Source: an uncultured virus (IMG/VR IMGVR_UViG_3300046171_000179) (Duplodnaviria; Heunggongvirae; Uroviricota; Caudoviricetes; Crassvirales). From it: DNA of 64,000 bases. Below are positions 633 through 59,921 of this stretch, piece after piece. A model generated the notes under the pieces. That model was not told where the DNA came from and made no database searches. It worked only from the letters and a program-made list of their open reading frames with translations. Position 1 is the first letter of the stretch, and each line of letters begins with the position of its first letter. Location of the stretch: IMG/VR virus record IMGVR_UViG_3300046171_000179, one strand, 5' to 3'. The position numbers were made by a program, and so were the translations under genes.

Positions 633-635
633 GCT

Positions 636-25405: not shown

Positions 25406-27636
25406 TGTACAAACAAACGCTTTATAAAATACACAATGCTCATTTATCTGATAAAAAAATTAAACATCTTAATAAACATAAGAAGTTTGAATATGGATAT
25501 AATGAAGAATTAGACTGTGTTGTAATAAGTAAAGATGGTACAATAGGTGATATATATGAAATACAAGGTCTTAAGGTAGCAATACCTAAAACTCCCAACA
25601 AAATAGATGGAGAAGACTTAAAACAAACAGATCAATATTTTAGAATAAAAAATAAACCAGAATCTTTAAATAAAATAAAAAGCATATATGATTTTCAATC
25701 TTACCCAGAGGATATTAAAGAAAAATACTACCAATATATTGATAGTGAGTTTAATTATCGTAATGATGGGTATTGGTTCATGTGCAACGGTGCCCCGAAC
25801 TACATTACAGGATCGCACTATGTCTATTTATCCTGGACAAAGATCGACGTGGGAGCACCAGATTTTAGGCAGGCAAACAGGATATTTTACTACTTCTGGG
25901 AGGCTTGCAAGGCAGATAAGAGATCTTATGGAATGTGCTACCTTAAGAACAGACGGTCTGGCTTTAGCTTCATGGCATCCTCAGAGACTGTTAACTTGGC
26001 AACAACTTCCAAGGACTCTAGATTTGGGGTCTTATCTAAAACTGGAGCAGATGCGAAGAAGATGTTTACAGACAAGATTGTACCCATATCAATCAACTAT
26101 CCATTTTTTTTCAAACCAATACAGGATGGGATGGAACGACCAAAGACGGAGTTATCCTATAAGATACCGTCAAGAAGACTTACCAGAAACGCCATCAAAG
26201 AGACCTATAGTCAGGAGGAATTTGGGAAGGGGCTCGATACAACAATCGATTGGAAGAACACGGGAGACAACTCGTATGATGGAGAGAAATTACAACTCCT
26301 CGTCCATGATGAATCCGGTAAATGGGAGAGGCCGGACAATATACTCAACAACTGGAGAGTCACGAAAACGTGCCTCAGGCTCGGTGCCAAAGTAGTAGGT
26401 AAATGTATGATGGGATCTACATCTAATGCTTTAAATAAAGGTGGAGATAACTTTAAAAAATTATTTTATAATTCAGATGTCACAAATAGAAACCGCAATG
26501 GCCAGACTACAAGTGGACTATATTCTTTGTTCATACCTATGGAGTGGGGATACGAAGGGTTTATTGACAAATACGGATATCCTGTCTTCGATACACCATC
26601 AGACCCGATTGAAGGAATTGATGGGGAAAAAATATTTACGGGAGTCATTGATCATTGGGAAAATGAAGTAGAAGGATTAAAAAAAGATAGTGATGCTTTA
26701 AATGAATATTACAGACAATTTCCAAGATCTGAAAAGCATGCTTTTAGAGATGAAACAGTTAATTCATTATTTAATTTAACTAAAATATATGAGCAAATAG
26801 ATTTTAACGAAGAAATGGCTATTAAAGGTTATGTTGTTCGTGGAACTTTTGCTTGGCAAAATGGTATAAAAGATACTAAAGTTATATGGGTTCCTAGTAA
26901 AAATGGTAGATTTAAAATATCATGGATACCGCCAGATAACATACAAAATAATATAATCATAAAAAATGGTATTAAATATCCTGGTAATGATGGCTTCGGA
27001 GCCTTCGGGTGTGATAGTTATGACATCAGCGGTACTGTTGGGGGTGGTGGGTCTAATGGTGCTCTTCATGGATTAACTACTTTTTCTATGGTGAATGATG
27101 TGCCTAATACTAAGTTTTTCTTAGAATACATAGCACGACCACAAACAGCAGAAATATTTTTTGAAGAAGTATTAATGGCATTAGTGTTTTACGGTATGCC
27201 AATACTTGCTGAAAATAATAAACCAAGATTATTATATCATTTAAAAAGAAGAGGTTATAGAGGTTTTTCTATGAACAGACCTGATAAACTTTTAGGTAAT
27301 TTATCTAAAACAGAAATAGAATTAGGAGGTATACCAAATACATCTGAAGATATAAAACAAGCACATGCGGCTGCTATTGAATCTTATATAGAAGATTATG
27401 TAGGACGTAAAGAAGAAAATCATGGTAATATGTATTTTCAAAAAACATTAGAAGACTGGGCGCGTTTTGATATATCAAGAAGAACATCTCATGATGCATC
27501 CATAAGTAGTGGACTTGCAATTATGGCGTGTAGAAAACATATGTATAGGCCTAATATGGAAAGAACAATAAAAAAAATAGATTTTCGTTTTGCAAAATAT
27601 AAAAACGACGGATCAATGAGTAAGATAATACAATAA
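25405..27636 (+). CDS. terL: Terminase large subunit
   Basis: KNRRSGFS Walker A, LLVHDESGK Walker B, FGCDSYD nuclease. Confidence 0.93.
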   Translation: MYKQTLYKIHNAHLSDKKIKHLNKHKKFEYGYNEELDCVVISKDGTIGDIYEIQGLKVAIPKTPNKIDGEDLKQTDQYFRIKNKPESLNKIKSIYDFQSYPEDIKEKYYQYIDSEFNYRNDGYWFMCNGAPNYITGSHYVYLSWTKIDVGAPDFRQANRIFYYFWEACKADKRSYGMCYLKNRRSGFSFMASSETVNLATTSKDSRFGVLSKTGADAKKMFTDKIVPISINYPFFFKPIQDGMERPKTELSYKIPSRRLTRNAIKETYSQEEFGKGLDTTIDWKNTGDNSYDGEKLQLLVHDESGKWERPDNILNNWRVTKTCLRLGAKVVGKCMMGSTSNALNKGGDNFKKLFYNSDVTNRNRNGQTTSGLYSLFIPMEWGYEGFIDKYGYPVFDTPSDPIEGIDGEKIFTGVIDHWENEVEGLKKDSDALNEYYRQFPRSEKHAFRDETVNSLFNLTKIYEQIDFNEEMAIKGYVVRGTFAWQNGIKDTKVIWVPSKNGRFKISWIPPDNIQNNIIIKNGIKYPGNDGFGAFGCDSYDISGTVGGGGSNGALHGLTTFSMVNDVPNTKFFLEYIARPQTAEIFFEEVLMALVFYGMPILAENNKPRLLYHLKRRGYRGFSMNRPDKLLGNLSKTEIELGGIPNTSEDIKQAHAAAIESYIEDYVGRKEENHGNMYFQKTLEDWARFDISRRTSHDASISSGLAIMACRKHMYRPNMERTIKKIDFRFAKYKNDGSMSKIIQ
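25688..26395 (+). CDS. Overprinted +1-frame ORF, lipoprotein-like (235 aa)
   Basis: Long stop-free frame; KK + hydrophobic + IGSC; host codons locally G/C-ending. Confidence 0.6.
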   Translation: MIFNLTQRILKKNTTNILIVSLIIVMMGIGSCATVPRTTLQDRTMSIYPGQRSTWEHQILGRQTGYFTTSGRLARQIRDLMECATLRTDGLALASWHPQRLLTWQQLPRTLDLGSYLKLEQMRRRCLQTRLYPYQSTIHFFSNQYRMGWNDQRRSYPIRYRQEDLPETPSKRPIVRRNLGRGSIQQSIGRTRETTRMMERNYNSSSMMNPVNGRGRTIYSTTGESRKRASGSVPK

Positions 27637-27638
27637 CT

Positions 27639-30070
27639 ATGGCAATAACAACAGGACAACTTCCTACACAATTTCCGAGTCAAGCTGTCTCAGATGAAGA
27701 AAAAATGTCTTCTGAATATGGTTTATCGGTTGGAAGGGCTATTGAACAAGAATGGTTCAATAAAGATAATAACCCCGGTATGTATTATCAAACCAATGAA
27801 GAGTTTCACAGGTTAAGATTATATGCTAGAGGTGAGCAGTCTGTTAAAAAATATAAAGATGAATTTGCTATAAACGGTGATTTGTCTTATTTAAATTTAG
27901 ACTGGAAACCTGTACCTATTATTCCTAAATTTGTAGATATCGTTGTAAATGGTATGCAAGATCGACTTTTTGATATAAAAGCTTTTGCGCAAGATCCTAT
28001 ATCAACAGGAAAAAGAACAGATTTTGTAAATAAAGTTCAAAGAGATATTAATGCTCAATCTTTATTAAAACAAATAGAAGCTGAAGTAGGTGTTGATGCT
28101 AGAAATATCAAACAAGATGATATGCCTACAAATACAGAAGAACTTGAATTATACATGCAATTAGCATATAAACAAGGTATAGAAATAGCTGAAGAACAAG
28201 CTATTAATAATGTTTTTCTAACAAATAAATATCCAGAATTAAAAAAACGCGTTGATTATGATTTAGCTGTATTAGGCATAGGAGCTGTAAAAAACACGTT
28301 TAACAATACAGATGGTATAAAACTAGACTATGTAGATCCCGCAAATTTAGTTTGGTCTTATACTGAAGATCCTAATTTTGAAGACTGTTATTATTTTGGA
28401 GAAATTAAAAGAATAAATCTTAACGAACTTAAAAAACAATTTCCAAATTTACCAAATGAAGAAATAGCAGAATTTGTTAAAAAAGGTTCTAATTGGGTTG
28501 ATTATAATAATAACTGGTTTAATAATAATTTTAATAGCGAAATAGATAATAATAATACACTTACTGTATTATATTTTAATTGGAAAACTTGGGAAAACAA
28601 CGTTTATAAAATTAAAGAAACATCTACTGGTGCTGATAAAGCTATATTAAAAAATGATAAATTTAACCCACCACAAGATAAAAGAACAAGATTTGAAAGA
28701 GTAGCACAAGCTAGAGAGGTTGTTTATGAAGGAGCTTATATATTAGGTAGTAATATACTACTTAAGTGGCAAAAAGCAAAAAACATGATAAGGCCTAGTT
28801 CAAATACTAATAAAGTATTAATGAACTATACTGTATCAGCTCCAAGAATGTATAAAGGTAATATAAATTCTTTAGTTTCTAAAATGACGCCTTATGCTGA
28901 TTTAATTCAGTTAACACATTTAAAACTACAACAAACAATACAAAGAATGGTTCCATCAGGTGTTTTTATAGATGCTGATGGTATTGCAGAAGTTGATTTA
29001 GGTAATGGAACTAATTATAATGCTCAAGAAGCATTAAACATGTATTTTTCTACAGGTTCTATTATTGGTAGATCTTTAACTGTAGAAGGTGATCCTAATC
29101 CAGGTAAAGTGCCAATACAAGAATTACCTGGAACTCAAGGTAATCAAATACAAATATTAGTAGCAGCATATAATCAGTATCTTCAAATGATAAGAGATAT
29201 TACTGGTTTAAATGAAGCTAGAGATGGTTCTGATCCTGATCCAAATTCACTAGTTGGAGTACAGAAATTAGCAGCAGCAAACAGTAATACAGCTACAAGA
29301 CATATATTATCATCAAGTATGTATATAACATTGGCCTTAGCTGAGGCTATATGTTTAAGATTTAAAGATGTATTAGAGTTTCATCCTACAAAAGAAGCTT
29401 TTATTGATTCACTTAGGTCAGATTTTCAGTAGGATCTTTAGAAGAAATGAAAAACTTACATTTGCATGATTTTGGTATATTTTTAGAATTAGAACCAGAT
29501 GAAGAAGAAAAATCTTTATTAGAAGCTAATATACAGGCTGCATTATCAAGAGATAGTATTAATTTAGAAGATGCTATTGACATACGTGAGATAAAAAATC
29601 TTAAACTTGCTAATCAAGTTCTTAAGATAAGACGTATTAAAAAACAACAGATAGATCAACAAATGGCCCAAGCGGCTAGCGTTGCTCAAGCTGAAGCACA
29701 AGGAGCTGCTCAAATACAAATAGAAGAAGCAAAAGCTCAAGCAGAACAAGTTAAAACAGAATCTAAAATTCAATATAGACAAGCTGATATTGAGTTTGAA
29801 ATTAAAAAATTAGAAGTAGAAGCCCAAACAAAAAGAGAGCTTATGCAGTTTGAATATGATTTAAATGTTAAATTAAAAGCTCTAGAATTAGAAGCTCAAA
29901 AAGAATTAGTAGAAAAACAAAATGAAACAGCTGTTGAAGTTGCTAATTTAAAAACATCTGCTAAAAGTTTATCAGGTCCACCTCAAACAGGTAAACCAGC
30001 TAAATCATTTGAATCTAAAGGAAATGATGTTTTAGGTGGTATTGATTTAAGTAGATTTTCACCTAAATAA
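27639..30070 (+). CDS. Portal protein, split by apparent frameshift near 29420
   Basis: Follows terL; LDWKPVPIIPKFVDIVVNG; removing two extra C restores SLGRFSVGSLEEMKNL. Confidence 0.85.
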
Positions 30071-30100
30071 AAATAAGTAACTATTATATTATATAAAATT

Positions 30101-31363
30101 ATGGAAGAACAAGAAAAAGTACAAGTTAAGGTTGTTGCAGACGATAGTCCAGCACCTACTAAACAAGAACAAGAAGCTGCTGTATTAGATCAAGCAGTAG
30201 AAACTGGGGAAGTTGCGTCTGAATATGGCTTACAAGACGATGGTGTTTATAAAATCAATTTAGATAAACCTCCCGTGCAAAACAAGGAAGAAAATGCCGT
30301 TCAAGAGCGAAAAACAGAGGAAGTTTCTGTGGATGAATCATCCGGAGATAGCAAAGAAGTGGACAAAGAAGTACGGGAACAGTCCAGTGAAAAAAACGAA
30401 CCCGTTCAAGCTGAAGAAAAAGTATTAAAAGAAAATGAATCTCCTTTAGAGCTAATTAAAGAAGATGAAGAAACTGTTGTTAAAGAAGAAGAACCTTCAA
30501 TAACAGCTGAACAAAAAGAAGAAGTTAAGGAAGCTGAAAAACAAATGCTTCCTGAAAACGTAGAAAAGCTAGTTACATTCATGGAAGAAACTGGTGGTTC
30601 TTTAGAAGATTATGTTAATCTAAATAGAGACATCAGTAAATATGATAATACTACTTTAATGCGTGAATATTATAAAAGTACAAAACCGCATTTAAATCAA
30701 GATGATATTGAGTTTATTCTTAATAAAAATTTTGGTTATGATGCAGAGACGGAAGATCCGTCAGATGTTAAAGCTAAACAATTAGCTTTTAAAGAAGAAT
30801 TATTTAATGCTCAAAACCACTTTAAAACAAGTAAGGAAAAATATTATGCTGATCTTAAGTTAAGAAAGCAAAACAATATTGATCCTGAATATAAAAAAGC
30901 TTATGAGTATTATAATGAACAACAAAGTTTAATAAAAGAAAGTGAAACTTTACAAAAAGATTTTTTAAATAAAACAAGTAATGTTTTTTCTGACGATTTC
31001 AAAGGTTTTGATTTTAGCGTAGGAAAAAATAAATATCGTTTTAAAGTAGAAAATCCATCTCAAGTTAAAGAATTTCAATCTGATATTAAAAATTTTGCTA
31101 ATGAATTTATCGGTAAAGATGGCACTATTACAGATGCTAAAGGTTATCACAAAGCTTTATTTGCCGGAAGAAATGCAGATAAAATAGCTAATCATTTTTA
31201 TGAGCAAGGCCGTGCCGATGCTATAAAAGAACAAGCTAAAGCTGCAAAAAATATTGATATGTCTCCGAGAGTAGATAATTCTAGTATTGTAAATTCAAAT
31301 GGTCAAAAAGTTAAAGTTGTTTCTGGAAATGACTCTTCTAAATTGCGAGTTAAATGGAAATAA
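30101..31363 (+). CDS. Putative scaffold/head assembly protein
   Basis: Acidic N-terminus; HFYEQGRADA; between portal and MCP. Confidence 0.7.
   Translation: MEEQEKVQVKVVADDSPAPTKQEQEAAVLDQAVETGEVASEYGLQDDGVYKINLDKPPVQNKEENAVQERKTEEVSVDESSGDSKEVDKEVREQSSEKNEPVQAEEKVLKENESPLELIKEDEETVVKEEEPSITAEQKEEVKEAEKQMLPENVEKLVTFMEETGGSLEDYVNLNRDISKYDNTTLMREYYKSTKPHLNQDDIEFILNKNFGYDAETEDPSDVKAKQLAFKEELFNAQNHFKTSKEKYYADLKLRKQNNIDPEYKKAYEYYNEQQSLIKESETLQKDFLNKTSNVFSDDFKGFDFSVGKNKYRFKVENPSQVKEFQSDIKNFANEFIGKDGTITDAKGYHKALFAGRNADKIANHFYEQGRADAIKEQAKAAKNIDMSPRVDNSSIVNSNGQKVKVVSGNDSSKLRVKWK
30294..30428 (+). CDS. Overprinted +1-frame 44-aa basic peptide
   Basis: MPFKSEKQRKFLWMNHPEIAKKWTKKYGNSPVKKTNPFKLKKKY; local G/C3 shift. 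Confidence 0.75.
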   Translation: MPFKSEKQRKFLWMNHPEIAKKWTKKYGNSPVKKTNPFKLKKKY

Positions 31364-31385
31364 ATAATTTTTAAAATCAAAACAA

Positions 31386-32975: not shown

Positions 32976-32989
32976 TATTTTTTAACTAT

Positions 32990-33030: not shown

Positions 33031-33039
33031 TATTTTATT

Positions 33040-35509: not shown

Positions 35510-38500
35510 ATGCCAGAAATTAAAAGAACATTCAATGTCGGTAAAATGAACCGAGATCTGGATGATAGAATAGTACCTGCCGGTGAATATCGAGAAGGTT
35601 TTAATATTAATATCGGGCAATCAGAAAGCTCAGATGTTGGTGCAGTTGAAAATTTATTAGGTAATGAATTAGTAGCACAAAGTGGACTTGCTAATGGTAA
35701 ATGTATAGGTCAAGTAGCTGATACTGGTGCAGAAAAAATATATTTTCTTGTTACTACAAATTCAATATATAATGAAACCAACAGTGGTCAGCATGGTTTA
35801 TTTGAATATGATCAAAAAACAAAACAACTTACAGCTTTAATTGTTTCAACACAGTTAAATTTACATCAAAATTATCCTGTAACAGGTATAAATATAGTTG
35901 ATGACCTTTTATTTTGGACTGATAATAGAAATTATCCTAGAAAAATAAATGTAGTAACCGCAAGAAACAATACTTCTTACTATACTGCAGCTGCAGATAT
36001 AGATAATTTAATATCTGTAGCTAAGTTTACACCATACGAATCCCCAACTATTGTTGCGGCAACTAGAGAATCTAGTATATCTTCTACTTTTATGGAAGAT
36101 AAACTTATTAGATTTTCATATAGGTGGCAGTTTGAAGATAGTGAGTATAGTGTATTAGCTCCATTTTCTCCTATACTTTTTTCAAGATTAAATGAAACTG
36201 ATACAATAAGTACTTCACTGTCAAATTTTGGTGAAATAGAAACTTTTGTTAACGCAATAAATCAAGTACAACTACAAATACCTACACCAACCGGATATGG
36301 TATTACAAGTGTTGAATTAATATACAAAGAGTCTGGATCAGGTACTTTATATGTTGTTGATGATCAAGAAATTACAACAGAACCTTTTGTAAACTTTACA
36401 TATTCTTCAACCGATCCATTTAGAACTTTGCCAGGTGATCAGCTTACTAGGGTTTATGATGCTGTACCTATTAAAGCTAAAGCACAAGAAGTTGCTGGTG
36501 GTAGATTAGTTTATGGAAATTTTTTACAAAATTTTGACATACCTAATATAGCTTTTAGTGTTGAAAGAACAGGTGAAACATCTGCTAGAAATAATATTTT
36601 AACAAATCAATCAGTTAAATCAAGAAGAACATATCAGGTTGGTATTGTATTAGCTGATAAATTTGGTAGACAATCACCTGTTATATTATCTAGCTCTGGT
36701 ACTGATACTGTTTTCATAGATCCAGGTTATGGTAATGCATCATCAACAACTGCTTTTAATGCATTGAGAATAGTATTTGCAGACACAACACAGATACCAA
36801 CATGGGCTTATTCATATAGAGTTGTTGTAAAACAACGTGAACAAGAATATTATAATTGGATATCTACTATTGATGCTGCTAACACGGTTAATCGTTTTGG
36901 CGATAGTATAAATAAAATACCTAGAGATCAAACAGCTGCAATACCTCCTAGTACTTCAGCAACAATATCTCCATGTAATGTATCTGTTTATCCTAAGTAT
37001 TTAGCTGGTGGAAATGTTTATACATCTCCATATGCGGCTTTAACTTCAGTACAATCTATTTCAAATCCTTCAGGTGATGCAACTGTTACAACTATTGATA
37101 ATAGCGGTAACGCAGTATCTACTGGTTTATGTGTTTTTGAAACAGAACCTGTTAGCTCTGAGTTAGATATATTTTATGAAACATCTACAGGAGGTTTAGT
37201 TGAGGATATTCCTGCTACTGCTATTGATATAGAATTTTTTAACTGTATATTGTTAACTTTTACAGCGGGTAATCATGTAGAAATAAATAGAATTAAAGCA
37301 GGTTTTAATCAACCGTTTTTTGATGTAGGTGTTAGAGCTTATGTAGTGCAAGAAAACTTTACTCAAGAAAGAAGAAATAATACTCTTATACATTCTAGTG
37401 GACTTTTAAACTCTAGAACTGGTATTAACTACATAAATCAATTTAATGAATCTGAGGGTGGTCTAACTATCTCTCTTGATCCACTAAATGGTTCTGTACA
37501 GAAAATGTTTGTTGATGATACGCAGATATTAATATTTCAAGAAGATAAAGTATCTAGATCACCTATTGATAAAAACTTTATATATGCAGCTGAAGGTGGC
37601 GCAGTGCCAGTTACAAGTAATACACAATTTTTGGGAACAGTAGCTGCTTATGCTGGTGAGTTTGGTATATCAAACGATCCTCAATCTTTTGCAAGTTTTG
37701 GTTTTTCAAGATATTTTACAGATAAAAATAGAGGTACTGTATTAAGATTATCTCAAAATGGTATTACTGAAATATCACAAGTTGGTATGGGTGATTTTTT
37801 TAGAGATGCTTTAAAACAATCTACGTCTATTATAGGATCTTATGATGAGTATAGTCGTATGTATGAATTAACTATTATAGGCCAAGGCTTTGATAGTAAT
37901 GAAGATACAAATGCAGCTACAGCATCAGATGGATATTTAACAGTTACTTTTGATGATAGATCAGGTGGGTGGACAAGTTTTAGAGGTTATAAACAAGAAG
38001 GTGGTTTATCATTAAATAATACATATTATACTTTTAACGGTGGTCAATTATGGCAACATCACAGTACTAATGTAACTAGAAATAATTTTTATAACTCTGG
38101 AACACAAGAGTCTTATGTTATACCTATATTTAACGACGCTCCATCGCTTGTAAAACAATATAACAGTTTAAGTTATGAAGGCGATACTGGCTGGGAGTTA
38201 GAGTACATAGAAACAGATATAAGCGCTTCAGGAACACTACCAGTTTTAGCAACATCTTTTACAACAACCCTACAATTAAATGGTGCTGCACCTAATTCTG
38301 TATTTAATGGAGCTAATACTGCTCAAGCTAAGCAAGGTGATAATGTTCAATGGGCTATTTTTGTATCACCATTAAACTCTCAATTTGCTTTTAACAACGT
38401 AAACGATATAACATTAACTCCAGCTTCTGGAAGTAGTTTAAGTGTAACAAATCCCGTTGGAACTCCTCCGTTTGAATCTACAGATGGAAGATTAGTATTT

Positions 38501-39499
38501 TTAGTTCAACACACTGTTGGAAACGCTAATAGCATACAAACTTTAAACATAGGAGGTACAGGCGCTTCTTTAGCATTTACTGTAGCTTTGTTGACCGTAA
38601 ACATTATAGATACTGTTTCAAACTCTTCAATAACTCCAGCTTCACAAGTGTTTAATAATGCTGGAAGTAATAGTGTTATATTTAGTACAGCTGTTGAAAA
38701 CAACTATTATATAGATACAGCTAACGTAACTGTTAGTGTGCTTGGGATGCCAGCTTCTACTAATCCTGGAACTTTAACAAATGTAAGGAGTGGAGTTGGA
38801 GGTTGTAGTGCATGTTTGGATAATTTAACTTACACTTTACCAATAACAGTTCCTTCAACAGCAACAGCTGGAACAATAACAGTAAATGGATCAGCAACAT
38901 TAAAATATACCTTACAATTAAATCAAGGTAATGTAGCGGCACCTACGGGTGGAACTGTTAATTATAGCACACCTGTTCAATCGAGCGGAGCAACAACAAC
39001 TATAGGTACACCTTTTTATAATTCTCCATTTGATTTAGCAAGTACTAGAACTGTTGTTATAACATACACATGTGCAACAACTGAAATACTTGTTGATAAT
39101 AGTTATGTTTTATCTGGTTTTCCAACTGGCACTACACCAACTCCTGTTTTAAGTAACGAAGATGGTCAACTAGCGATAACTCAAGTTATACCTATACTTA
39201 CACAAGATACAGTTGTAACTCCAGTTGTAGATTCAACAGTAGGAGCAGTTGCAGCAACATTAGGTAATACTTCTACAATAAATCTACCTCAACCTGGTAG
39301 TGCACAAACTATAGCTAGTACTTGGAATGTTAATGGATCTGCTTCACCAGGTTCTCCAACCGCCTCTTGGTTATCTTTAGATTCTGCTGCTTCTGGCGTA
39401 GCTATATCGTTATCTCCAGGAGTTTCTTTTACAGTTTCGGCGCTACTGAAAATAAACGGAGCTCATCAAGATCCCGAACTATTACTTAGCAACAACTAA
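35510..39499 (+). CDS. Tail stabilisation/muzzle protein with S/T-rich C-terminal extension
   Basis: GKMNRDLDDR, LFWTD.RN.PRKIN, YFTDKNRG.VLRLS, GWTSF; 3' end uncertain. Confidence 0.8.
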   Translation: MPEIKRTFNVGKMNRDLDDRIVPAGEYREGFNINIGQSESSDVGAVENLLGNELVAQSGLANGKCIGQVADTGAEKIYFLVTTNSIYNETNSGQHGLFEYDQKTKQLTALIVSTQLNLHQNYPVTGINIVDDLLFWTDNRNYPRKINVVTARNNTSYYTAAADIDNLISVAKFTPYESPTIVAATRESSISSTFMEDKLIRFSYRWQFEDSEYSVLAPFSPILFSRLNETDTISTSLSNFGEIETFVNAINQVQLQIPTPTGYGITSVELIYKESGSGTLYVVDDQEITTEPFVNFTYSSTDPFRTLPGDQLTRVYDAVPIKAKAQEVAGGRLVYGNFLQNFDIPNIAFSVERTGETSARNNILTNQSVKSRRTYQVGIVLADKFGRQSPVILSSSGTDTVFIDPGYGNASSTTAFNALRIVFADTTQIPTWAYSYRVVVKQREQEYYNWISTIDAANTVNRFGDSINKIPRDQTAAIPPSTSATISPCNVSVYPKYLAGGNVYTSPYAALTSVQSISNPSGDATVTTIDNSGNAVSTGLCVFETEPVSSELDIFYETSTGGLVEDIPATAIDIEFFNCILLTFTAGNHVEINRIKAGFNQPFFDVGVRAYVVQENFTQERRNNTLIHSSGLLNSRTGINYINQFNESEGGLTISLDPLNGSVQKMFVDDTQILIFQEDKVSRSPIDKNFIYAAEGGAVPVTSNTQFLGTVAAYAGEFGISNDPQSFASFGFSRYFTDKNRGTVLRLSQNGITEISQVGMGDFFRDALKQSTSIIGSYDEYSRMYELTIIGQGFDSNEDTNAATASDGYLTVTFDDRSGGWTSFRGYKQEGGLSLNNTYYTFNGGQLWQHHSTNVTRNNFYNSGTQESYVIPIFNDAPSLVKQYNSLSYEGDTGWELEYIETDISASGTLPVLATSFTTTLQLNGAAPNSVFNGANTAQAKQGDNVQWAIFVSPLNSQFAFNNVNDITLTPASGSSLSVTNPVGTPPFESTDGRLVFLVQHTVGNANSIQTLNIGGTGASLAFTVALLTVNIIDTVSNSSITPASQVFNNAGSNSVIFSTAVENNYYIDTANVTVSVLGMPASTNPGTLTNVRSGVGGCSACLDNLTYTLPITVPSTATAGTITVNGSATLKYTLQLNQGNVAAPTGGTVNYSTPVQSSGATTTIGTPFYNSPFDLASTRTVVITYTCATTEILVDNSYVLSGFPTGTTPTPVLSNEDGQLAITQVIPILTQDTVVTPVVDSTVGAVAATLGNTSTINLPQPGSAQTIASTWNVNGSASPGSPTASWLSLDSAASGVAISLSPGVSFTVSALLKINGAHQDPELLLSNN

Positions 39500-51198: not shown

Positions 51199-52941
51199 TT
51201 ATCCATCACAGGATATACAGTTTGGATCCATAGCTTTAGCAGCTATATCACCTCTTAGAACTGATTCAGTTCTCATATAATAAAGAGTTTTTATACCCCT
51301 TTTCCAAGCTTCAAAATGGACTTTATTAACCCATCTTGGCTCAGCCTCCGCAGGAAATGCTAGATTTAATGATACTGATTGATCAATATAATCTTGCCGT
51401 ATTCCAGCTTGTCCAACTAACTCCAGTTGGTTTATCTCTTTAAACGTTTTATAAACGTTCTTGACAGACTCGCCTTCTTCTTGAGTTAGTCGTCCGAGGT
51501 GGTCGTAAAACCATCCATCGAGTTCTTTAATTCCTTGAATGGATCCACCATCTTCCAGAATTTTATCCCAAGTTTCTTTGGTATCAATACCAACTTTCTT
51601 AAGTACTTTCCTAAGTTCATTGTTTTTTCTTATAAATGTTCCTTTAGCTGATTGTTCTGTAAAAACATTAGCTGCCCAAGGCTCTATGCCTGGCGATATG
51701 TTACCACTTAATTTACTATTAGAAACTGTAGGCGCTACAGATCTTAAATGTGTATTTCTAAAACCTGTACCTACACACCACAAAGGCTCACCATATATCT
51801 CAGCAAGCTTACGTGATGCTCTTTCTGTTTCAATTTTAATCTTACTGAATATTTCTCTAGTTTTAAACTGAGCTAAAAGCCCTTCAAAAGCTATTCCCTT
51901 CTTCTGTAACAGCGTGTGCCAGCCTAATACACCTAAACCTATGGCTCGGCCTTTTTCCGCTGATCTAATAGCGTTTTCAAAGCCTTTCATATTCTTAGCT
52001 TTTTGTATAAACTCCTCCATTACACCATCTAAAAACCATGTAGCATCATAGATAAGATTAGTATTTTTCCACTCATCGTATTTAGCAAGATTTAAAGATG
52101 ACAAGCAACAAACAAAACTGTGGCTTTCATCTGTATGTAGTGTTATTTCACTACATATATTAGTCATATGTACCTTTAAGCTATTCGACTTGTAAGCAGG
52201 TGGATTAGCCTTGTTCGTATTACCTTTAAAGAGGATATACGGCTCCCCAGTAGCTTTACGTTTTTGGAGTAGCTTGGACCATCTTTGTCGTGCTTCTTGA
52301 TCTCCGCTCTCGAGCTTTCGCATAAACTTATCGCCAACGACAGCACACTGATGTAGGTTAAGAGATTGCCTGTTGACGTCACCTTTAGGTTCTCTAATTT
52401 CCAACCATTCATCAAAATCAGAGTGTTCGATATTGAGATTAACGGATGCAGCTCCTCTACGTACTGATCCTTGATTGGTCGCGAGTATAGTTGAGTCATA
52501 GATTTTGCAAAAAGGGACAACTCCATCTGATGTTCCATTACCTGTAATTTTAGATCCGGCAGGGCGTATCATATTGATGCCTATACCTACTCCGCCGCCG
52601 TGTTTAGCAAGTAGCATCATTTCTAAGTTCTTGTTACCTATATCATTTATGCTATCAGCAACATCAATACCAAAACAAGAGATAGGTAAACCTCTGTCTG
52701 TACCTGTATTAGATAACACAGGTGATGCTAAACATAGCCAGCCTTTCCAGATGTAGTCAAAAAACTGTTCTGCTAGCTCTGGTTTATATAACCTTCTAGC
52801 AACAGCATTTGAAACACGCGTGTAAGCTTCTCTAGGTGATTCACCCATCAAAAGATATCCACCGATAATAGTTTTCTTATAAACATCAGTATCACCCCAG
52901 TTAGGATAATCTACACCTTTTTTCCAATCGTTATTCCACAT
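51199..52941 (-). CDS. nrdA: Ribonucleotide reductase class Ia alpha (short, no ATP cone)
   Basis: PISCF, TNICSE, VAPT.S, KTLYY, C-terminal CISC. Confidence 0.95.
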   Translation of the reverse strand: MWNNDWKKGVDYPNWGDTDVYKKTIIGGYLLMGESPREAYTRVSNAVARRLYKPELAEQFFDYIWKGWLCLASPVLSNTGTDRGLPISCFGIDVADSINDIGNKNLEMMLLAKHGGGVGIGINMIRPAGSKITGNGTSDGVVPFCKIYDSTILATNQGSVRRGAASVNLNIEHSDFDEWLEIREPKGDVNRQSLNLHQCAVVGDKFMRKLESGDQEARQRWSKLLQKRKATGEPYILFKGNTNKANPPAYKSNSLKVHMTNICSEITLHTDESHSFVCCLSSLNLAKYDEWKNTNLIYDATWFLDGVMEEFIQKAKNMKGFENAIRSAEKGRAIGLGVLGWHTLLQKKGIAFEGLLAQFKTREIFSKIKIETERASRKLAEIYGEPLWCVGTGFRNTHLRSVAPTVSNSKLSGNISPGIEPWAANVFTEQSAKGTFIRKNNELRKVLKKVGIDTKETWDKILEDGGSIQGIKELDGWFYDHLGRLTQEEGESVKNVYKTFKEINQLELVGQAGIRQDYIDQSVSLNLAFPAEAEPRWVNKVHFEAWKRGIKTLYYMRTESVLRGDIAAKAMDPNCISCDG

Positions 52942-53077: not shown

Positions 53078-53429
53078 TGTATAAATATATAGTATATCCT
53101 ATCATTACATTAATATTTACAGCTACTAAATTCCATTGTTTAGCTAACCAAACTTGAGGAATAGATATTAAACCGCCTAATATATAAATAATTGGACCTA
53201 TATTACCAGAGCTTAATATATAAGGAGCTATCATAATAAAAGCAGTTCCCATATAACCAAGTCTTTGAGCTAATCTTTCTTTAGCACTTAAACGCCTGTC
53301 CTGTACAAGTAATCTTAAAAAGCTTTTTTTCCATCTAAACTCACATCTCATACAGGTTTTTTTACCAGTATGTTTAAACTTAGATTCTTTCTTTTTTTTC
53401 TTACATATATTACACTCTCTCATTACCAA
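53070..53429 (-). CDS. Zn-ribbon plus multi-TM protein
   Basis: CNIC/CMRC then hydrophobic helices. Confidence 0.65.
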   Translation of the reverse strand: MVMRECNICKKKKKESKFKHTGKKTCMRCEFRWKKSFLRLLVQDRRLSAKERLAQRLGYMGTAFIMIAPYILSSGNIGPIIYILGGLISIPQVWLAKQWNLVAVNINVMIGYTIYLYNA

Positions 53430-54391
53430 ATATCTTCAAAATCTTCTCCTTCATTTGCTTTGGAATAATCTGTGGGACGTACAGCAAAAAAGTCAGTATG
53501 AGTGTGGCCACCAGTGAGATGGTAAAACCAATCGAGTCTGCTTGCTGCTTTGTCATCGTACTTAAAGTACTTCCCGAGGTGCTTGTATCCAAGCTCAAGC
53601 AGTTTTTCATTAAGTCTTTTTCTAATAAATTGTTTGAGATCGTAGGCTTTAAGGTTTTCAATATCTCCTTGTTCGAACATTTTATCAATGTATCGCTCTT
53701 CTGCTTTAAGCATTGCTTCTGCTGCATTTGTAACATCTTTTTTACAGTCTTCTAATAAATGATTATCTTCTTGACACATGTGTCTAAATAATTGGCAACC
53801 CATTTTACTGTGTAGTGATTCATCGCGAACAGACCACTTCATTTGTTGACCAATACCTTTTAAAAGGTTTCTTAATTGGAAGCTATATAACACAGCAAAA
53901 GCAGAATATAAACTAACTCCTTCAGCAAAAGCGCTAAAAATAGCCAACGATTTTGCAATACCAACTCTATCAGTTCCTTCATAGCTAACTAAGGTATTAA
54001 AACGTTCCATTGTAGCTTCATCTTGTAAGAAAGCTTCAAAATCTTCTAGGCCTAATGTTTCATTAAGATAACTATAAGCAACCGCGTGTATAGTTTCTTG
54101 GCTACCAAACATCATAGCCATTTGTTTTATCTCATGCTTAGGAAACCACGATACAACTTTTTGGGTCCAATAATCAGATACCGCACACTCAGTTTGCGCA
54201 AATCCCAAAAGTATATTTCCAACCAAGTTCTTCTCTGCTTTGGTAAGCTTTTCGTTCCAATCCTTGACATCACCTGACATCGGTATCTCGGTATGAAGCC
54301 AGAATGCTTGAGCTTGTTTAAGCCATCCCTCAGTATAGTACTCTGGATATTCAAACGGTTTGTATGCAATTCTTTCATCAAATAATCCCAT
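53423..54391 (-). CDS. nrdB: Ribonucleotide reductase beta
   Basis: ETIHAVAY, EGVSLYSAF, RDESLH diiron motifs. Confidence 0.95.
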   Translation of the reverse strand: MGLFDERIAYKPFEYPEYYTEGWLKQAQAFWLHTEIPMSGDVKDWNEKLTKAEKNLVGNILLGFAQTECAVSDYWTQKVVSWFPKHEIKQMAMMFGSQETIHAVAYSYLNETLGLEDFEAFLQDEATMERFNTLVSYEGTDRVGIAKSLAIFSAFAEGVSLYSAFAVLYSFQLRNLLKGIGQQMKWSVRDESLHSKMGCQLFRHMCQEDNHLLEDCKKDVTNAAEAMLKAEERYIDKMFEQGDIENLKAYDLKQFIRKRLNEKLLELGYKHLGKYFKYDDKAASRLDWFYHLTGGHTHTDFFAVRPTDYSKANEGEDFEDIW

Positions 54392-56398: not shown

Positions 56399-56400
56399 GT

Positions 56401-56739: not shown

Positions 56740-56744
56740 ATTTT

Positions 56745-56996: not shown

Positions 56997-57000
56997 ATTA

Positions 57001-57639: not shown

Positions 57640-57931
57640 AAAATGATATTAAGTATTTAAATATAATTGCACTAAAACATAGATAATAAAACAAACCAAC
57701 AATTTTAGATATATTATAATATAAAGAATAGTATTTACTTTTTAGCATTATTGTTTCTAAATTAAATAGAATAAATAATAATATACTAAATAATATTATT
57801 GCAGGTTTCAAACCATTAACTTGTCTTAAATCTACATATATAATCAATGATGTTACTGTAAATATAATAATAATTATTGAAAATAAAAAGTTTTTTAAGC
57901 TTAAATAATTAAACTTTCTTCTGTTTATCAT
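57629..57931 (-). CDS. Membrane protein
   Basis: Three hydrophobic segments; very AT-rich. Confidence 0.5.
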   Translation of the reverse strand: MINRRKFNYLSLKNFLFSIIIIIFTVTSLIIYVDLRQVNGLKPAIILFSILLFILFNLETIMLKSKYYSLYYNISKIVGLFYYLCFSAIIFKYLISFYEN

Positions 57932-58211
57932 AATAGTATTTATATGCGTTCATAACTTCATCCCATATCTGTTTCCAATCATAATGATGTTTAGACTTAT
58001 AAACTTTTTTATGTTTACCAGGTTCTGATACACCAACGTGCCATTTACCGTTTTTATTAGTAACAGGTATTGGAGATATTATTATACCTTGTTTTACTCC
58101 CCAACTATACCACACGCGTTGTTCATCGCTCATCATCCACTCATCGTCTAATAAAAAACCAGACTTTTTTTTCTTAGCAAGCTCTCTTGCTTTTAAAGTA
58201 CCTACACTCAT
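57909..58211 (-). CDS. Hypothetical protein
   Basis: 100-aa ORF directly after primase. Confidence 0.7.
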   Translation of the reverse strand: MSVGTLKARELAKKKKSGFLLDDEWMMSDEQRVWYSWGVKQGIIISPIPVTNKNGKWHVGVSEPGKHKKVYKSKHHYDWKQIWDEVMNAYKYYYDKQKKV

Positions 58212-59921
58212 CTATCCTTCCCAAGGCATTGAATCTAACTCTTGTTGATACGGTATGTAGTCGCCTGAGTCTTTATTCCATTTAAAGTGTGCCTCTGCTT
58301 GGTTTTCTCCAAGGTTTTGAAACTTAACTTTAAGTACTTTAACCTTAACTGTTTTATTAGTGTAATTCCTATGAACAAGAAGCCCGTGATAACTAGCATC
58401 ATACCACTCACCACCTCCTTTAATAGAATACATTGTCGGTTCATCCATTGTTCCATCATCTTTCTTATACATTTTAGTTGGGTGAGCTACAACAATAACA
58501 AGTACATCATGCTTTTTTGCAAAAGCTTCTATACGTGTTAAGTATTCCATCGTTGCATCAGGTATACTCATTGCACTAGCTCCGTTCATTTTTACTTTAT
58601 TATATGGATCTATAACTAAACACTTTATACCTTTACGTTTAACTAATTCAGCACCTTTGTTTAGCACAGAATCAAGATCATATCTTTCATTTTCTATAAA
58701 GTAAAAGTTATCATCTACTAGTTCTGTAACTTGATTCCACTTATCTGTACCTATATCTTCTTTCTTAGGCATCCAACCTCCTATCTTACGTATTAATTTA
58801 TGAGTATGTAAGAATGTAGGTTTGTTCTCTGGTGAAGCAAATGCTGTTTTCCAGCCGTACTTCATTTGGTAACCCACCACCATTCGATCAACAAAATCAG
58901 ACTTCCCACTGCTAGGAACGCCTGTAACGGTGATGAATTGCCCTGTGTAAGTAGAGAATATGCTATCAAAGTTATCAAGACCGACTTGATAACCAGGTTT
59001 AAAACCTTCATGAATAAATTCTTGTAGTTCATCATTTACATCTTTTAAGGTTACTACATTTTCAAGAGGAACAGGACTAGCTGTATCAACAAGACGCTTG
59101 AGCATAGTATTGCCGTAGCGTAACATATATTCATTAGCATCTTTACAGTCGTTAAAGTCAACTGTATAACATACCTCTGCTCCGAACCGTCTAATGAGTT
59201 CTTGCTGTAGATTTTGTCCTGCTTCATCTTTGTCAACTGCAATGATAATTTTGGATTTGTCATCGAAATATTCAATGCAATTATCAAGGTAATCAAGGTT
59301 AAGGCGGTTAAGAGTAGCTCCGTTTGGTACACTGACCACACTGTCGATCTTAGAATCCACAAAAGATAAAGCATCCATTTCGCCTTCCACAATAACAACA
59401 TAATCACGGCCAATAGTACTATCAATATTATAGAATACTTTTTCGGCACCTTTAACAAGTTTAAAGTTTTTTCTACCATCTCTATATTTTATATTTATAA
59501 GTTCGTTATTAATAAAATAATTAAATTGAATAGTGTTCTCAACTTTAGAGGTCTGTGGCATCCACTCAGAACCTTCAGATATTCTCATCTTAATAAGTGT
59601 TCGTTGTGAAATGCCTCTGTCCTCAAACCATTTAACAGCTCTATCGCTTATAAGTACATTATTATGCCATTCAGGTTTTGTATATACTTTATTTACATCT
59701 CCTTTACGTTGAAAGGTATGTAACTGAAATACCTCATCACAATTCATACAAGTACCAAGACCACGTTCCCAATCATACATAGCACATTTTGCTTTACGAT
59801 TCTCAGGTTTTCTATCAGCAGAGCAAAGAGGACAAGTGCCCTCTTTTTTCCCTACTTCAAGATCATACTGATTGAACTGGTCAATAGTAAATCCGTTGAT
59901 CTCTGTATTGTTAATTGTCAT
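58212..59921 (-). CDS. Primase-helicase (T7 gp4/Twinkle-like)
   Basis: CPLC/CMNC Zn site, IVEGEMD and D.DEAG TOPRIM, GVPSSGKS, VIDP, VVAHP. Confidence 0.93.
   Translation of the reverse strand: MTINNTEINGFTIDQFNQYDLEVGKKEGTCPLCSADRKPENRKAKCAMYDWERGLGTCMNCDEVFQLHTFQRKGDVNKVYTKPEWHNNVLISDRAVKWFEDRGISQRTLIKMRISEGSEWMPQTSKVENTIQFNYFINNELINIKYRDGRKNFKLVKGAEKVFYNIDSTIGRDYVVIVEGEMDALSFVDSKIDSVVSVPNGATLNRLNLDYLDNCIEYFDDKSKIIIAVDKDEAGQNLQQELIRRFGAEVCYTVDFNDCKDANEYMLRYGNTMLKRLVDTASPVPLENVVTLKDVNDELQEFIHEGFKPGYQVGLDNFDSIFSTYTGQFITVTGVPSSGKSDFVDRMVVGYQMKYGWKTAFASPENKPTFLHTHKLIRKIGGWMPKKEDIGTDKWNQVTELVDDNFYFIENERYDLDSVLNKGAELVKRKGIKCLVIDPYNKVKMNGASAMSIPDATMEYLTRIEAFAKKHDVLVIVVAHPTKMYKKDDGTMDEPTMYSIKGGGEWYDASYHGLLVHRNYTNKTVKVKVLKVKFQNLGENQAEAHFKWNKDSGDYIPYQQELDSMPWEG

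Follow-up and report, generated by a model that had tools for sequence, protein, structure and literature searches.

Probable small proteins in the +1 frame of terminase, ribonucleotide reductase and primase-helicase genes of a marine phage

Do core genes of an uncultured marine phage (Crassvirales; IMG/VR record IMGVR_UViG_3300046171_000179) carry further protein-coding genes in an alternative frame of the same strand, and if so, how many? Within the 64,000-nucleotide stretch analysed (the window), the longest open run of each of 63 genes was compared, frame by frame, with 1000 synonymous-codon permutations. In four essential genes, encoding the large terminase (terL), both ribonucleotide reductase subunits (nrdA and nrdB) and a primase-helicase, the longest +1 run exceeded that of all 1000 gene-wide shuffles. 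The lowest +1 p-value among the remaining 59 genes was 0.032, and in the +2 frame the lowest for any of the 63 genes was 0.020. The long same-strand +1 ORFs that the original prediction had placed in these four genes are thus confirmed, while the systematic, genome-wide layer that it had proposed is not: the effect is confined to a handful of genes, and in the scaffold gene (30101–31363), also named as overprinted, the longest +1 run spans only 54 codons (p=0.65). The predicted preference for the +1 frame is partly trivial. Stop codons are fewer in the +1 than in the +2 frame across the window (1738 vs 2663 of 20198 codons), in which no +2 run of at least 60 codons occurs, so a +1 bias is expected by chance.

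Our reading is that a few same-strand +1 frames, one long frame in each of the four genes and a short second one in the primase gene, have likely been selected to stay free of stops and are most likely overprinted (de novo) genes, which probably encode unannotated small proteins. We favor overprinting because the frames avoid stops in a frame-specific manner, are open beyond chance and conserved in diverged relatives, and, in the primase gene and nrdA, coincide with reduced synonymous divergence. Support is best for primase and nrdA, good for terL and weaker for nrdB. In the comparison with related genomes (diverged IMG/VR sequences), +1 stops are absent from 34/35 primase loci (reference codons 147–284), 63/81 nrdA relatives, 49/80 to 53/81 nrdB relatives and 12/78 terL relatives, the last being an unbiased sample chosen by terL similarity. 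Synonymous sites are near saturation among these relatives, with pS inside the overlaps reaching 0.61–0.70 in lineages whose frames are still open.

Could the open runs instead be a chance by-product of local composition, arising from GC3-rich stretches introduced through recombination with relatives of higher GC, or from codon bias in conserved genes? The four host genes do have the highest whole-gene GC3 among large genes (0.26–0.29, compared with 0.11–0.16 in most large genes), and pS is mosaic in some pairs of relatives (for example 0.10 inside vs 0.52 outside for L083–L099), as recombination would produce. The suggestion that patches of raised GC coincide with +1 ORFs holds strongly in terL, the only gene with a sharp GC3 patch, but not in the other three, where GC3 of the +1 run and of the whole gene are 0.27 vs 0.26 (primase), 0.30 vs 0.29 (nrdB) and 0.34 vs 0.28 (nrdA). 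Across the window, GC3 and +1 stops are correlated at rho=-0.16; without the four genes the value is -0.06 (p=0.14). What decides the matter is a context test, in which the share of xTA among Leu/Ile/Val codons is compared between sites followed by a purine, at which a +1 stop would result, and sites followed by a pyrimidine. In the four host genes pooled, xTA accounts for 102/275 codons before purines (0.37) and 90/145 before pyrimidines (0.62); in the other 59 genes the shares are identical (1486/2453, 0.61, and 669/1091, 0.61). Inside the overlaps, xTA drops to 0 before purines, yet remains at 0.59–0.73 before pyrimidines, and +2-frame stops are still present. Since xTA is lost only where a +1 stop would arise, GC content does not account for the open runs. 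Neither recombination nor GC alone explains this pattern, and the compositional explanation, which the context test largely refutes, is very unlikely.

The best-supported candidate for overprinting lies in the primase-helicase gene (58212..59921, minus strand; phrog_239, E=1.7e-80). Primase-alt1 (59054..59479, minus strand) is a +1 ORF of 141 aa with a GRAVY of 0.86, and its overlap with the host contains the Toprim_2 domain (Pfam; host residues 176–265). For the gene as a whole, the context test yields p=0.00028, and across 31 sequences of the overlap xTA occurs in 0/827 Leu/Ile/Val codons before a purine and 156/260 before a pyrimidine. Composition again fails as an explanation, as local block shuffles still expect 5.6 stops in the overlap, which retains approximately 6 +2-frame stops per 30 codons. 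The sole exception among the 35 loci is a relative with 44% identity and 9 stops. More distantly, the primase of Cellulophaga phage phi10:1 (42% identity), despite a similar GC3 of 0.23, does not have the frame open and contains 55 +1 stops. Synonymous divergence is reduced, with pS of 0.216 inside the overlap and 0.372 outside (lower in 9/9 independent pairs, sign p=0.002), and pN/pS is 0.22 inside vs 0.09 outside; pooled codon diversity at conserved residues shows no clear drop (0.384 inside vs 0.395 outside). The predicted product has three hydrophobic segments, conserved in 25–32 of 32 sequences, beneath which fourfold sites of the host are A-poor (0.13, vs 0.32 outside) and T-rich (0.64). 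An AlphaFold model consists of long helices only (pTM 0.30).

The trough in primase pS continues past alt1 to approximately codon 340, with values of 0.20–0.25 over codons 285–340, and this extended part coincides with a second candidate, primase-alt2 (58862..59035, minus strand), a +1 ORF of 57 aa with two hydrophobic stretches. Four stops within seven codons separate the two ORFs. The alt2 frame is open in 41/49 sequences, each with 7.2 at-risk sites, and xTA before purines is found in 0/295 cases; the run is exactly 57 codons long in 40/53 loci.

In nrdA (51199..52941, minus strand; phrog_84, E=1.2e-146; Pfam PF02867), the +1 run of 130 codons (p<0.001 against synonymous shuffles) contains nrdA-alt (52176..52538, minus strand), whose predicted 120-aa product lacks a hydrophobic segment and would be soluble. 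The contrast between lineages is informative here. Among ORF-bearing lineages, pS is 0.183 inside the overlap and 0.334 outside, and lower inside in 19/20 independent pairs, whereas in six pairs of ORF-lacking lineages it is 0.209 inside and 0.193 outside (lower in 3/6). The start codon is ATG in 75/81 relatives; the remaining six have ACG, and all six have 5–11 stops in the region. Because every loss of the ATG falls in a lineage with a decayed ORF, we count the start codon in favor of overprinting.

The longest +1 ORF belongs to terL (25405..27636, plus strand; phrog_6681, E=3e-166, residues 24–742). The open run spans 238 codons, where shuffles average 57 (p<0.001), and contains terL-alt (25688..26395, plus strand). 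Its predicted product of 235 aa has a hydrophobic N-terminal segment, kept in 24/27 family members, and beyond it a strongly basic body rich in Arg, Ser, Thr and Gly (pI 11.3). Part of what favors the compositional alternative is found here: the ORF lies in a GC3-rich patch (codons 120–330; 25765..26394, plus strand), where 30-codon bins reach 0.37–0.63 and the flanks 0.07–0.20, and relatives with higher patch GC3 have fewer +1 stops (GC3 0.51 with 0 stops, 0.35 with 6–9 and 0.25 with at least 10). Outside the patch, GC3 is steady at 0.21–0.25 whatever the integrity of the ORF. The patch thus vanishes in relatives with a broken ORF, and this dependence of composition on an intact frame also counts in favor of overprinting. 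The context test argues against composition, both for the whole gene (xTA in 38/80 codons before purines vs 35/48 before pyrimidines, p=0.004) and within the patch, where 10/10 xTA codons sit before a pyrimidine. Ten ORF-bearing sequences have xTA in 0/190 codons before purines and 88/149 before pyrimidines of the overlap, while 18 ORF-lacking sequences have 239/388 and 184/249 in the same region, and block-wise local synonymous shuffles of ORF-bearing sequences still expect 3–5 stops each.

Among distinct terL sequences overall, 25/139 are free of +1 stops, many additional ORF-bearers having been found through the alt-protein search, which matched 53 protein clusters at 42–90% identity. Runs of 180 codons or more are present in 73/120 leaves across most of the terL tree and imply 13 parsimony changes, in a sampling that is enriched for ORF-bearers. 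The drop in terL pS is weak (0.283 inside vs 0.351 outside; lower in 11/18 pairs, sign p=0.24); it is stronger over codons 120–240, a sub-region picked after inspection of the profile. Pooled codon diversity at conserved residues shows no drop inside the overlap (0.340 vs 0.317 outside). Constraint from the host frame forces much of the conservation of an alt protein, as in the “IGSC” motif of terL-alt, where a Met-Cys pair encoded by terL determines the Cys that follows the hydrophobic stretch. A second terL run of 78 codons, containing a 76-aa GTG ORF (26441..26671, plus strand), is a minor candidate with weak evidence: 125/140 sequences keep the first 63 of these codons open, but each offers only 3.2 stop-risk sites.

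The weakest of the four long candidates is nrdB-alt, a +1 ORF of 108 aa (53410..53736, minus strand) at the C-terminal end of nrdB (53423..54391, minus strand; phrog_86, E=2.4e-70; Pfam PF00268) that extends 13 nt beyond the nrdB stop. The gene as a whole contains 9 +1 stops vs 16.7±2.0 expected (context test p=0.0016), each relative has 12.4 at-risk sites, and the single hydrophobic segment near the C-terminus is kept in 47/47 sequences. In a local shuffle, P(0 stops) is 0.10; nrdB pS does not dip inside the overlap (0.294 vs 0.310 outside; lower in 10/15 pairs); the ATG is present in just 43/81 relatives; and the T-rich wobble positions under the hydrophobic segment are the same where the long ORF is interrupted. 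At the 5′ end of nrdB, a run of 87 codons with an 84-aa TTG or 83-aa ATG ORF (54127..54381, minus strand) is a further minor candidate, with a local-shuffle P(0 stops) of 0.0038, but it is open in only 14/81 relatives.

Synonymous constraint could also reflect an element acting at the nucleic-acid level, such as an RNA structure or a packaging or replication site, with the open frame incidental. Consistent with this are the primase trough beyond alt1 and a terL pS dip at codons 345–390 that is seen in ORF-bearing and ORF-lacking clades alike. The extended primase trough, however, matches alt2, and a structural element gives no reason for stop trinucleotides to be avoided in a single frame. RNA structure, raised at the outset as a possible refutation, is not supported by folding z-scores against dinucleotide shuffles (primase-alt1 -0.48, terL-alt +0.50, nrdA-alt +0.57), and we regard a nucleic-acid element as highly improbable.

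A different question is how overprinted frames would be entered. Programmed +1 frameshifting or transcriptional slippage would produce trans-frame fusions of an N-terminal host part and an alt tail, with no independent initiation. This would fit selection for an open frame with loose sequence constraint, and would accommodate the aligned terL-alt start, which is ATG in 34/139 sequences and TTG in most (89/139). The scores of internal starts under a start-context matrix built on 53 gene starts also bear in part on the suggestion that A-rich, SD-independent initiation could favor the origin of such starts: primase-alt ranked at the 98th percentile among 962 internal out-of-frame ATGs, but terL-alt, nrdA-alt and nrdB-alt only at the 84th, 78th and 67th. 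Against frameshifting, the primase-alt1 ATG, conserved in 35/35 loci, has a +1 stop 3 codons upstream, primase-alt2 begins with a Met immediately 3′ of a stop, and all 6/6 nrdA lineages without the ATG are also without the ORF. Furthermore, open runs in relatives begin at the same few positions (codons 88, 91, 102 or 112 in terL; 141–144 in primase), which fits a fixed start. Frameshifting is thus unlikely, and independent internal initiation is the reading that we infer.

It is also conceivable that the frames, being translated, have to be kept open although their products are functionless, for instance if internal initiation is unavoidable and early termination harmful. The weak sequence constraint on terL-alt and nrdB-alt would agree with this, as would the finding that no homologues of any alt product were found outside the overlaps. 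On the other hand, boundaries are sharp and conserved, with adjoining stop clusters (2.4 and 3.8 stops per 15 codons on the two sides of primase-alt1), hydropathy follows a conserved pattern, and pS is about halved in primase and nrdA. Losing the ATG, as in the ORF-lacking nrdA lineages, would be a simpler remedy for a harmful start. We consider functionless products improbable, and infer functional ones. Searches with the alt proteins returned no Pfam family at E<=0.01 or PHROG at E<=0.1, and no stand-alone homologue was recognized (a profile search gave only 10 hits, which were not placed on loci); the candidates are best read as overprinted genes with no known homologues. The prediction that products would often be membrane-type holds for primase-alt1 (three segments), nrdB-alt (one) and terL-alt (one), but not for nrdA-alt.

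Precedents for small proteins encoded within other phage genes exist. In phage lambda, Rz1 of the spanin pair is a small envelope-targeted protein embedded in Rz on the same strand in the +1 frame. As with Rz1, the phage has a dsDNA genome and the ORF is contained wholly within another gene, and terL-alt resembles Rz1 in its N-terminal hydrophobic stretch followed by a Cys. However, the hosts here are terL, primase or ribonucleotide reductase genes rather than a partner spanin, and terL-alt, unlike the short, Pro-rich Rz1, is 235 aa long and Arg-rich, with its Cys dictated by terL and no sequence similarity to any PHROG. The single-gene lysis proteins E of phiX174 (inside gene D) and L of MS2 are encoded in alternative frames of ssDNA or ssRNA genomes that are tiny and extremely limited in size. 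They share with the candidates the character of small hydrophobic membrane proteins overprinted on an essential gene in its +1 frame, with hydrophobicity derived from T at the host wobble position, as in primase-alt1; they differ in that the present genome exceeds 60 kb, has several such ORFs together, and has lysis only as a candidate role. Our permutation test follows the logic that Schlub, Buchmann and Holmes (2018; PMC6188560) apply to detect overlapping genes as ORFs longer than expected under codon or synonymous permutation. The alt products match features reported for overprinted genes (basic, disordered or hydrophobic, and without homologues); viral overprinting has been reviewed (PMC8227390). 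The portions of the literature retrieved contain no report of such ORFs in terminase, primase or ribonucleotide reductase genes of Bacteroidota-type or crAss-like phages; none links “crAss-like” with overlapping genes, and “terminase large subunit” is absent from the papers found.

Under overprinting, an internal ATG on the mRNA of the host gene itself would serve ribosomes as a start, shifted by one base from the host frame, for a small protein: primase-alt1 (141 aa), primase-alt2 (57 aa), nrdB-alt (approximately 100 aa), nrdA-alt (120 aa) or terL-alt (235 aa). In the +1 arrangement, codon position 2 of the new gene would be the wobble position of the host gene, so that selection on the alt protein would be written into the host's synonymous sites; the GC3 patch of terL would then exist because selection acts on the alt protein, and so would the wobble positions rich in T and poor in A that underlie the hydrophobic segments of primase-alt1. 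Because they would be co-expressed with replication or packaging genes, the products could possibly act at the membrane, in taking over the host, in superinfection exclusion or in lysis.

Counting ORFs that encode at least 60 amino acids and are not nested in others, the window contains 63, arranged as in a phage genome. The packaging and structural block lies on the plus strand and includes terL (25405-27636, +), the portal protein in two ORFs and the virion proteins. The replication block lies on the minus strand and includes nrdA (51199-52941, -), nrdB (53423-54391, -), a primase-helicase (58212-59921, -; hereafter primase) and genes for thymidylate synthase, a MazG-like protein, an exonuclease and an Erf-like annealing protein. 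The nearest cultured relatives of this phage lineage infect Bacteroidota. By terL DNA similarity the closest are phages of Flavobacterium (68 records) and Cellulophaga (4), all matches being partial and distant, and the nearest cultured primase (42% amino-acid identity) comes from Cellulophaga phage phi10:1.

Three other loci in the window merit a remark. The two portal ORFs (27639-29432 and 29447-30070, +) are adjacent, 14 nt apart and in different frames; the first matches positions 7-596 of the phrog_6547 profile and the second positions 621-790, an arrangement that could reflect a genuine split of the gene, a frameshift or a fault in the assembly. A virion protein of 1329 amino acids (35510-39499, +) matches phrog_14478 and, below threshold, the crAss muzzle C-terminal domain PF25729 (20 bits, cut-off 27), which hints at a crAss-like structural ancestry. 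The minus-strand ORF at 488-1171, which starts with TTG, has atypical GC at its three codon positions (0.39/0.45/0.32) and may be spurious, with 636-977 (+) the real gene.

Four host genes each contain an ORF in the +1 frame of the same strand: terL-alt (25688-26395, +; 235 aa), nrdA-alt (52176-52538, -; 120 aa), nrdB-alt (53410-53736, -; 108 aa) and primase-alt1 (59054-59479, -; 141 aa). ORF length was evaluated against gene-by-gene shuffles of synonymous codons (1000 per gene, 300 for the single gene of more than 1500 codons), a procedure that follows, in outline, the logic of a published test (PMC6188560). The longest +1 run was never equalled by the shuffles (p<0.001) in 4 of the 63 genes, namely terL (238 codons vs a shuffle mean of 57), primase (144 vs 53), nrdA (130 vs 55) and nrdB (109 vs 52). 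The lowest +1 p among the remaining 59 genes was 0.032, and the +2 frame, used as a negative control, gave a minimum p of 0.020 in any gene. Under local shuffles, a stop-free region had a probability below 0.0002 in terL and in primase, of 0.0028 in nrdA and of 0.10 in nrdB, and when codons were shuffled within 40-codon blocks, 3.0-5.4 stops per sequence were still expected in terL sequences with the ORF. The "+1 bias" of the ORFs is in part trivial, given that stops over all genes are fewer in +1 (1738 in 20198 codons) than in +2 (2663 in 20198); runs of at least 60 codons number 15 in +1 and none in +2 across the genes of the window. Among the antisense frames, 3 of 189 tests under synonymous shuffling reached the floor of p = 0.0025, with open runs of 70, 122 and 81 codons at 488-1171 (-)/636-977 (+), 15542-16840 (+) and 29447-30070 (+), respectively.

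The original prediction was of a genome-wide layer of hidden +1 genes that also involved a scaffold gene. When the 63 ORFs of the window are tested, only four genes show the effect, and the gene probably meant by "scaffold" (30101-31363), which has no family match, has a longest +1 run of only 54 codons (p=0.65). We therefore drop the genome-wide claim and treat the effect as one of four genes.

Patches of raised GC had been proposed to coincide with the +1 ORFs. This is strongly so in terL alone, where a sharp patch at codons 120-330 has a GC3 of 0.37-0.63 per 30-codon bin against 0.07-0.20 in both flanks; in primase, nrdB and nrdA, GC3 over the run is hardly above that of the rest of the gene. 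At the level of whole genes, GC3 is 0.26-0.29 in all four host genes compared with 0.11-0.16 in most large genes. Across the window, the expected relationship between GC3 and +1 stop count proved weak (rho=-0.16) and vanished when the four host genes were left out (rho=-0.06, p=0.14).

Codon choice with respect to the following base is more informative. Nearly the sole source of +1 stops is a Leu, Ile or Val codon ending in TA (xTA) that is followed by a purine, together with xTG followed by A. When the other 59 genes are pooled, xTA accounts for 1486/2453 of the Leu, Ile and Val codons before a purine and 669/1091 before a pyrimidine (0.61 in both), and codon choice in these genes takes no account of the following base. 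In the four host genes the proportions are 102/275 (0.37) before a purine vs 90/145 (0.62) before a pyrimidine, so that the anticipated depletion of xTA before purines is borne out, and the frame-specific stop avoidance is absent from the 59 control genes. A test of xTA use that defines no region gave p=0.00028 for primase, 0.0016 for nrdB and 0.004 for terL, the three strongest genes. Within the terL patch of the window, xTA is used before a pyrimidine in 10/10 cases; outside the patch it is used before a purine in 38/63. Stops in the +2 frame remain within the overlaps (about 6 per 30 codons in primase), and thus stop trinucleotides as such are not avoided. Composition alone as the cause is largely ruled out by the dependence of xTA use on the next base, by the block shuffles and by these persisting +2 stops. 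RNA structure was likewise rejected as the cause, the folding z-scores of the three main overlaps being -0.48, +0.50 and +0.57 against dinucleotide shuffles.

The predicted ORFs recur in related genomes, to differing degrees. Searching IMG/VR with each of the four host proteins gave 80, 74, 80 and 80 loci. In primase, a +1 run of 141-147 codons begins at reference codon 141-144 in all 31 sequences of at least 90% coverage (the window and 30 relatives of 76-91% identity) and is flanked by clusters of stops (2.4 and 3.8 stops per 15 codons). The region has zero stops in 34 of the 35 loci that cover at least 100 codons of it, the sole exception being a distant relative of 44% identity with 9 stops. 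Within the overlap of the 31 sequences, xTA occurs at 0/827 Leu, Ile or Val codons before a purine, a zero that arises by construction where the region is defined as open, vs 156/260 before a pyrimidine; outside the overlap it occurs before a purine in 830/1913. More telling is that about 27 at-risk sites per sequence are clean in lineages with near-saturated synonymous sites (synonymous divergence, pS, of 0.61 inside the overlap between the window and locus L110). The ORF is absent from the phi10:1 primase, which has no overlapping annotation, 55 stops in the +1 frame, a longest run of 59 codons and a similar GC3 of 0.23; this is the primase whose +1 frame was examined among cultured relatives, and no cultivable ORF-bearing phage was found.

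A second primase ORF, primase-alt2 (58862-59035, -), encodes 57 amino acids with two hydrophobic stretches. It opens with a Met right after a stop, and four stops within seven codons separate it from primase-alt1. The run is exactly 57 codons long in 40/53 loci and is open in 41/49, with 7.2 at-risk sites each. Two further +1 runs, at the 3′ end of primase (58235-58459, -; 83 codons, open in 11/71 relatives) and at the 5′ end of nrdB (54127-54381, -; 87 codons, open in 14/81 relatives), are poorly conserved.

The nrdA ORF is present as a run of at least 100 codons in 63 of the 81 sequences covering its center, and the 18 sequences that lack it represent several lineages. ACG replaces the alternative ATG in 6 sequences, all of which lack the ORF and have 5-11 stops each. 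In nrdB, 53/81 sequences have a run of 85 codons or more. Other +1 runs in nrdA have no counterpart in the window: runs of 133-176 codons start from reference codons 266-285 in L198-L202, L206, L209 and L213-L215, and runs of 80-136 codons start from reference codon 356, reaching 128-136 codons in L157, L158, L176 and L177. These suggest the repeated birth of +1 ORFs in nrdA or, alternatively, residual composition effects, and their restriction to particular lineages hints that ORF births and deaths are ongoing.

The terL ORF is more patchily distributed. Among 78 relatives found by terL similarity and covering the region, 12 have no stops and 1 has a single stop; many of the rest retain a shorter run from the same start, and about half have 12-18 stops. 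A second scan added loci but was seeded with the alternative protein itself, so the terL set is biased towards ORF-bearers. This enriched set of 139 distinct sequences includes 25 with no stops, 29 with 1-2 and 39 with at least 10. GC3 in the patch falls as the number of stops rises (0, 1-2, 3-5, 6-9 and 10 or more stops go with 0.51, 0.48, 0.45, 0.35 and 0.25), whereas in the rest of the gene it remains at 0.21-0.25, and in 18 ORF-less sequences xTA before a purine is back to 239/388 within the region. Since its GC3 tracks the integrity of the ORF and relaxes where the ORF is missing, the patch behaves as a consequence of the ORF and not as its cause. On a tree of 120 leaves of at least 85% coverage, built only from the flanking parts of the gene, 73 leaves of this ORF-enriched sample carry a run of 180 codons or more. 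Such leaves are found over most of the tree, with a single large ORF-less clade and 13 changes by parsimony. A second terL +1 run (26441-26671, +; codons 343-420) has its first 63 codons open in 125/140 sequences. It is open also in clades without the main ORF, and codons 345-390 show a pS dip whether or not the main ORF is present; the evidence for it is weak because there are only 3.2 at-risk sites per sequence.

Constraint on the host genes was measured in two ways. Codon diversity at conserved residues, pooled over all sequences, did not fall within the overlap (0.384 inside vs 0.395 outside for primase, 0.340 vs 0.317 for terL), which we attribute to saturation, and this measure was therefore replaced by Nei-Gojobori pS on close, phylogenetically independent pairs (greedy choice, each sequence used once, overall pS 0.03-0.5). 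Primase pS is lower inside the overlap in 9/9 pairs (0.216 vs 0.372, sign p=0.002), with a pN/pS of 0.22 inside vs 0.09 outside, and the trough extends to about codon 340, a stretch that contains primase-alt2. Pairs of ORF-bearing nrdA sequences have lower pS inside in 19/20 cases (0.183 vs 0.334), with the trough at codons 105-240, whereas ORF-lacking pairs show no trough (0.209 vs 0.193, lower in 3/6); this comparison is the cleanest control of the data set. Synonymous divergence is thus roughly halved inside the primase and nrdA overlaps. The terL signal is weak (lower inside in 11/18 pairs, 0.283 vs 0.351; sign p=0.24, Wilcoxon p=0.04), and the stronger dip at codons 120-240 (13/18 pairs) concerns a sub-region chosen after the profile was seen. 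There is no signal in nrdB (10/15 pairs, 0.294 vs 0.310). Some pairs look mosaic, for example L083-L099, so recombination adds noise to pS.

None of the four alternative proteins has a match in Pfam (E of 0.01 or less) or PHROGs (E of 0.1 or less), and the ESM Atlas returned nothing at 0.9 or above. Primase-alt1 has a GRAVY of 0.86 and three hydropathy-defined hydrophobic segments, kept in 25, 31 and 32 of 32 family members, with a polar Lys-rich loop between segments two and three. Host fourfold sites beneath the segments are T-rich (T 0.64, A 0.13) compared with those outside the ORF (T 0.52, A 0.32), and the T share is higher under the segments in 28/31 sequences. A profile of 32 primase-alt sequences found 10 matches of 128-235 amino acids among 1.84 billion representatives, which, to judge by their length and full-length match, seem to be this same embedded ORF. 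Modeled with AlphaFold2, primase-alt1 (pLDDT 71) forms only long helices, with a pTM of 0.30, and the model is uninformative. Holins have 2-4 transmembrane domains (three in class I), a charged C-terminal tail and an endolysin neighbor. Primase-alt1 has three hydrophobic segments but also a hydrophobic C-terminus, lies inside primase and has no PHROG or Pfam holin match; a holin assignment was weighed but not adopted.

The nrdB-alt protein has a single hydrophobic segment near the C-terminus, in 47/47, and nrdB sequences with an interrupted long ORF keep the same T-rich wobble pattern and a shorter 65-codon run over this segment. No hydrophobic segment is found in nrdA-alt. In the terL-alt protein (pI 11.3), an N-terminal hydrophobic segment, present in 24/27 family members, precedes the residues Ile-Gly-Ser-Cys and a long basic body. 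We read this motif by comparison with a lipobox pattern; a Met-Cys pair of terL fixes the Cys, which is therefore not independent evidence for a lipoprotein. Rz1-type outer-membrane spanins have a lipobox Cys signal and a short Pro-rich mature part and are embedded in or adjoin the inner-membrane spanin gene, whereas terL-alt is 235 amino acids long, rich in Arg, Ser and Thr, located inside terL and without a PHROG spanin match, and this assignment was rejected. A search with terL-alt returned 53 unnamed clusters of 133-373 amino acids, assumed to be gene calls on the same embedded ORF.

The ATG of primase-alt1 is present in 35/35 sequences, where the host codons are GAT GGN and never GAC. The alternative ATG is found in 75/81 sequences for nrdA, 43/81 for nrdB and 34/139 for terL, with TTG in 89 terL sequences. 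This conservation is forced in part by host-frame residues. A start-context matrix was derived from the window's own genes (53 starts), and it shows A-rich upstream regions. The scores were compared with those of 962 internal ATGs that lie out of frame: in this comparison the primase-alt1 ATG reaches the 98th percentile, and the nrdA, nrdB and terL starts the 78th, 67th and 84th. Compared with true starts, the primase-alt1 ATG reaches the 64th percentile. Part of the stretch is present in 19 of the 24 runs listed, and 4 RNA-library runs from 2 studies were examined. The RNA-library matches are contigs that carry no strand, frame, ends or level, with DNA carry-over possible, and favor neither side.

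Taken together, the excess length, frame-specific stop avoidance, fixed boundaries, conservation through saturated divergence (with joint decay of start, frame and composition in some lineages) and, in primase and nrdA, halved pS make up the pattern that overprinted protein-coding genes show, and we found no alternative that predicts the combination. We rank the candidates with primase-alt1 first, then nrdA-alt, then terL-alt and primase-alt2 about equally, and nrdB-alt last. From the sequence comparisons we infer that the alternative ORFs may be translated, initiated independently and functional. As to function, the readings that we find most plausible are speculative: the products from primase and nrdB could be small membrane proteins, made with the replication genes, that have a part in taking over the host, in exclusion or in the timing of lysis, and terL-alt could be a late-expressed basic protein, exported or membrane-anchored. 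Nested +1 genes are classical in phages, as in lambda Rz1 within Rz, phiX174 E within D, and MS2 L. In the literature covered, in which subscription journals are thinly represented, such ORFs are not described for terminase, primase or RNR genes, or for crAss-like or Flavobacteriia phages.

We lean slightly towards the reading that widespread uncultured marine phages have repeatedly given birth to at least three translated, functional +1 genes that all gene callers miss, in primase, nrdA and terL, which are among their most conserved enzymes. A three-segment membrane protein would then be written across the Toprim domain of primase, and host wobble composition, such as the terL GC3 patch and the T-rich stretches of primase, would be the visible footprint of the second code. 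If translated, these ORFs would mean that abundant marine phages carry conserved proteins unreported by any annotation pipeline. The host genes (terL, primase and RNR) are phylogenetic markers usually assumed to be under a single constraint, and their synonymous sites would not be neutral. A deficit of xTA before purines, taken together with how ORF length compares with synonymous shuffles, would provide a cheap detector that works on a single genome. For the birth of genes de novo in a large dsDNA phage, the overprinted ORFs would also serve as clean natural cases, with built-in controls in the sister lineages that lack the ORF and in which the compositional footprint is relaxed.
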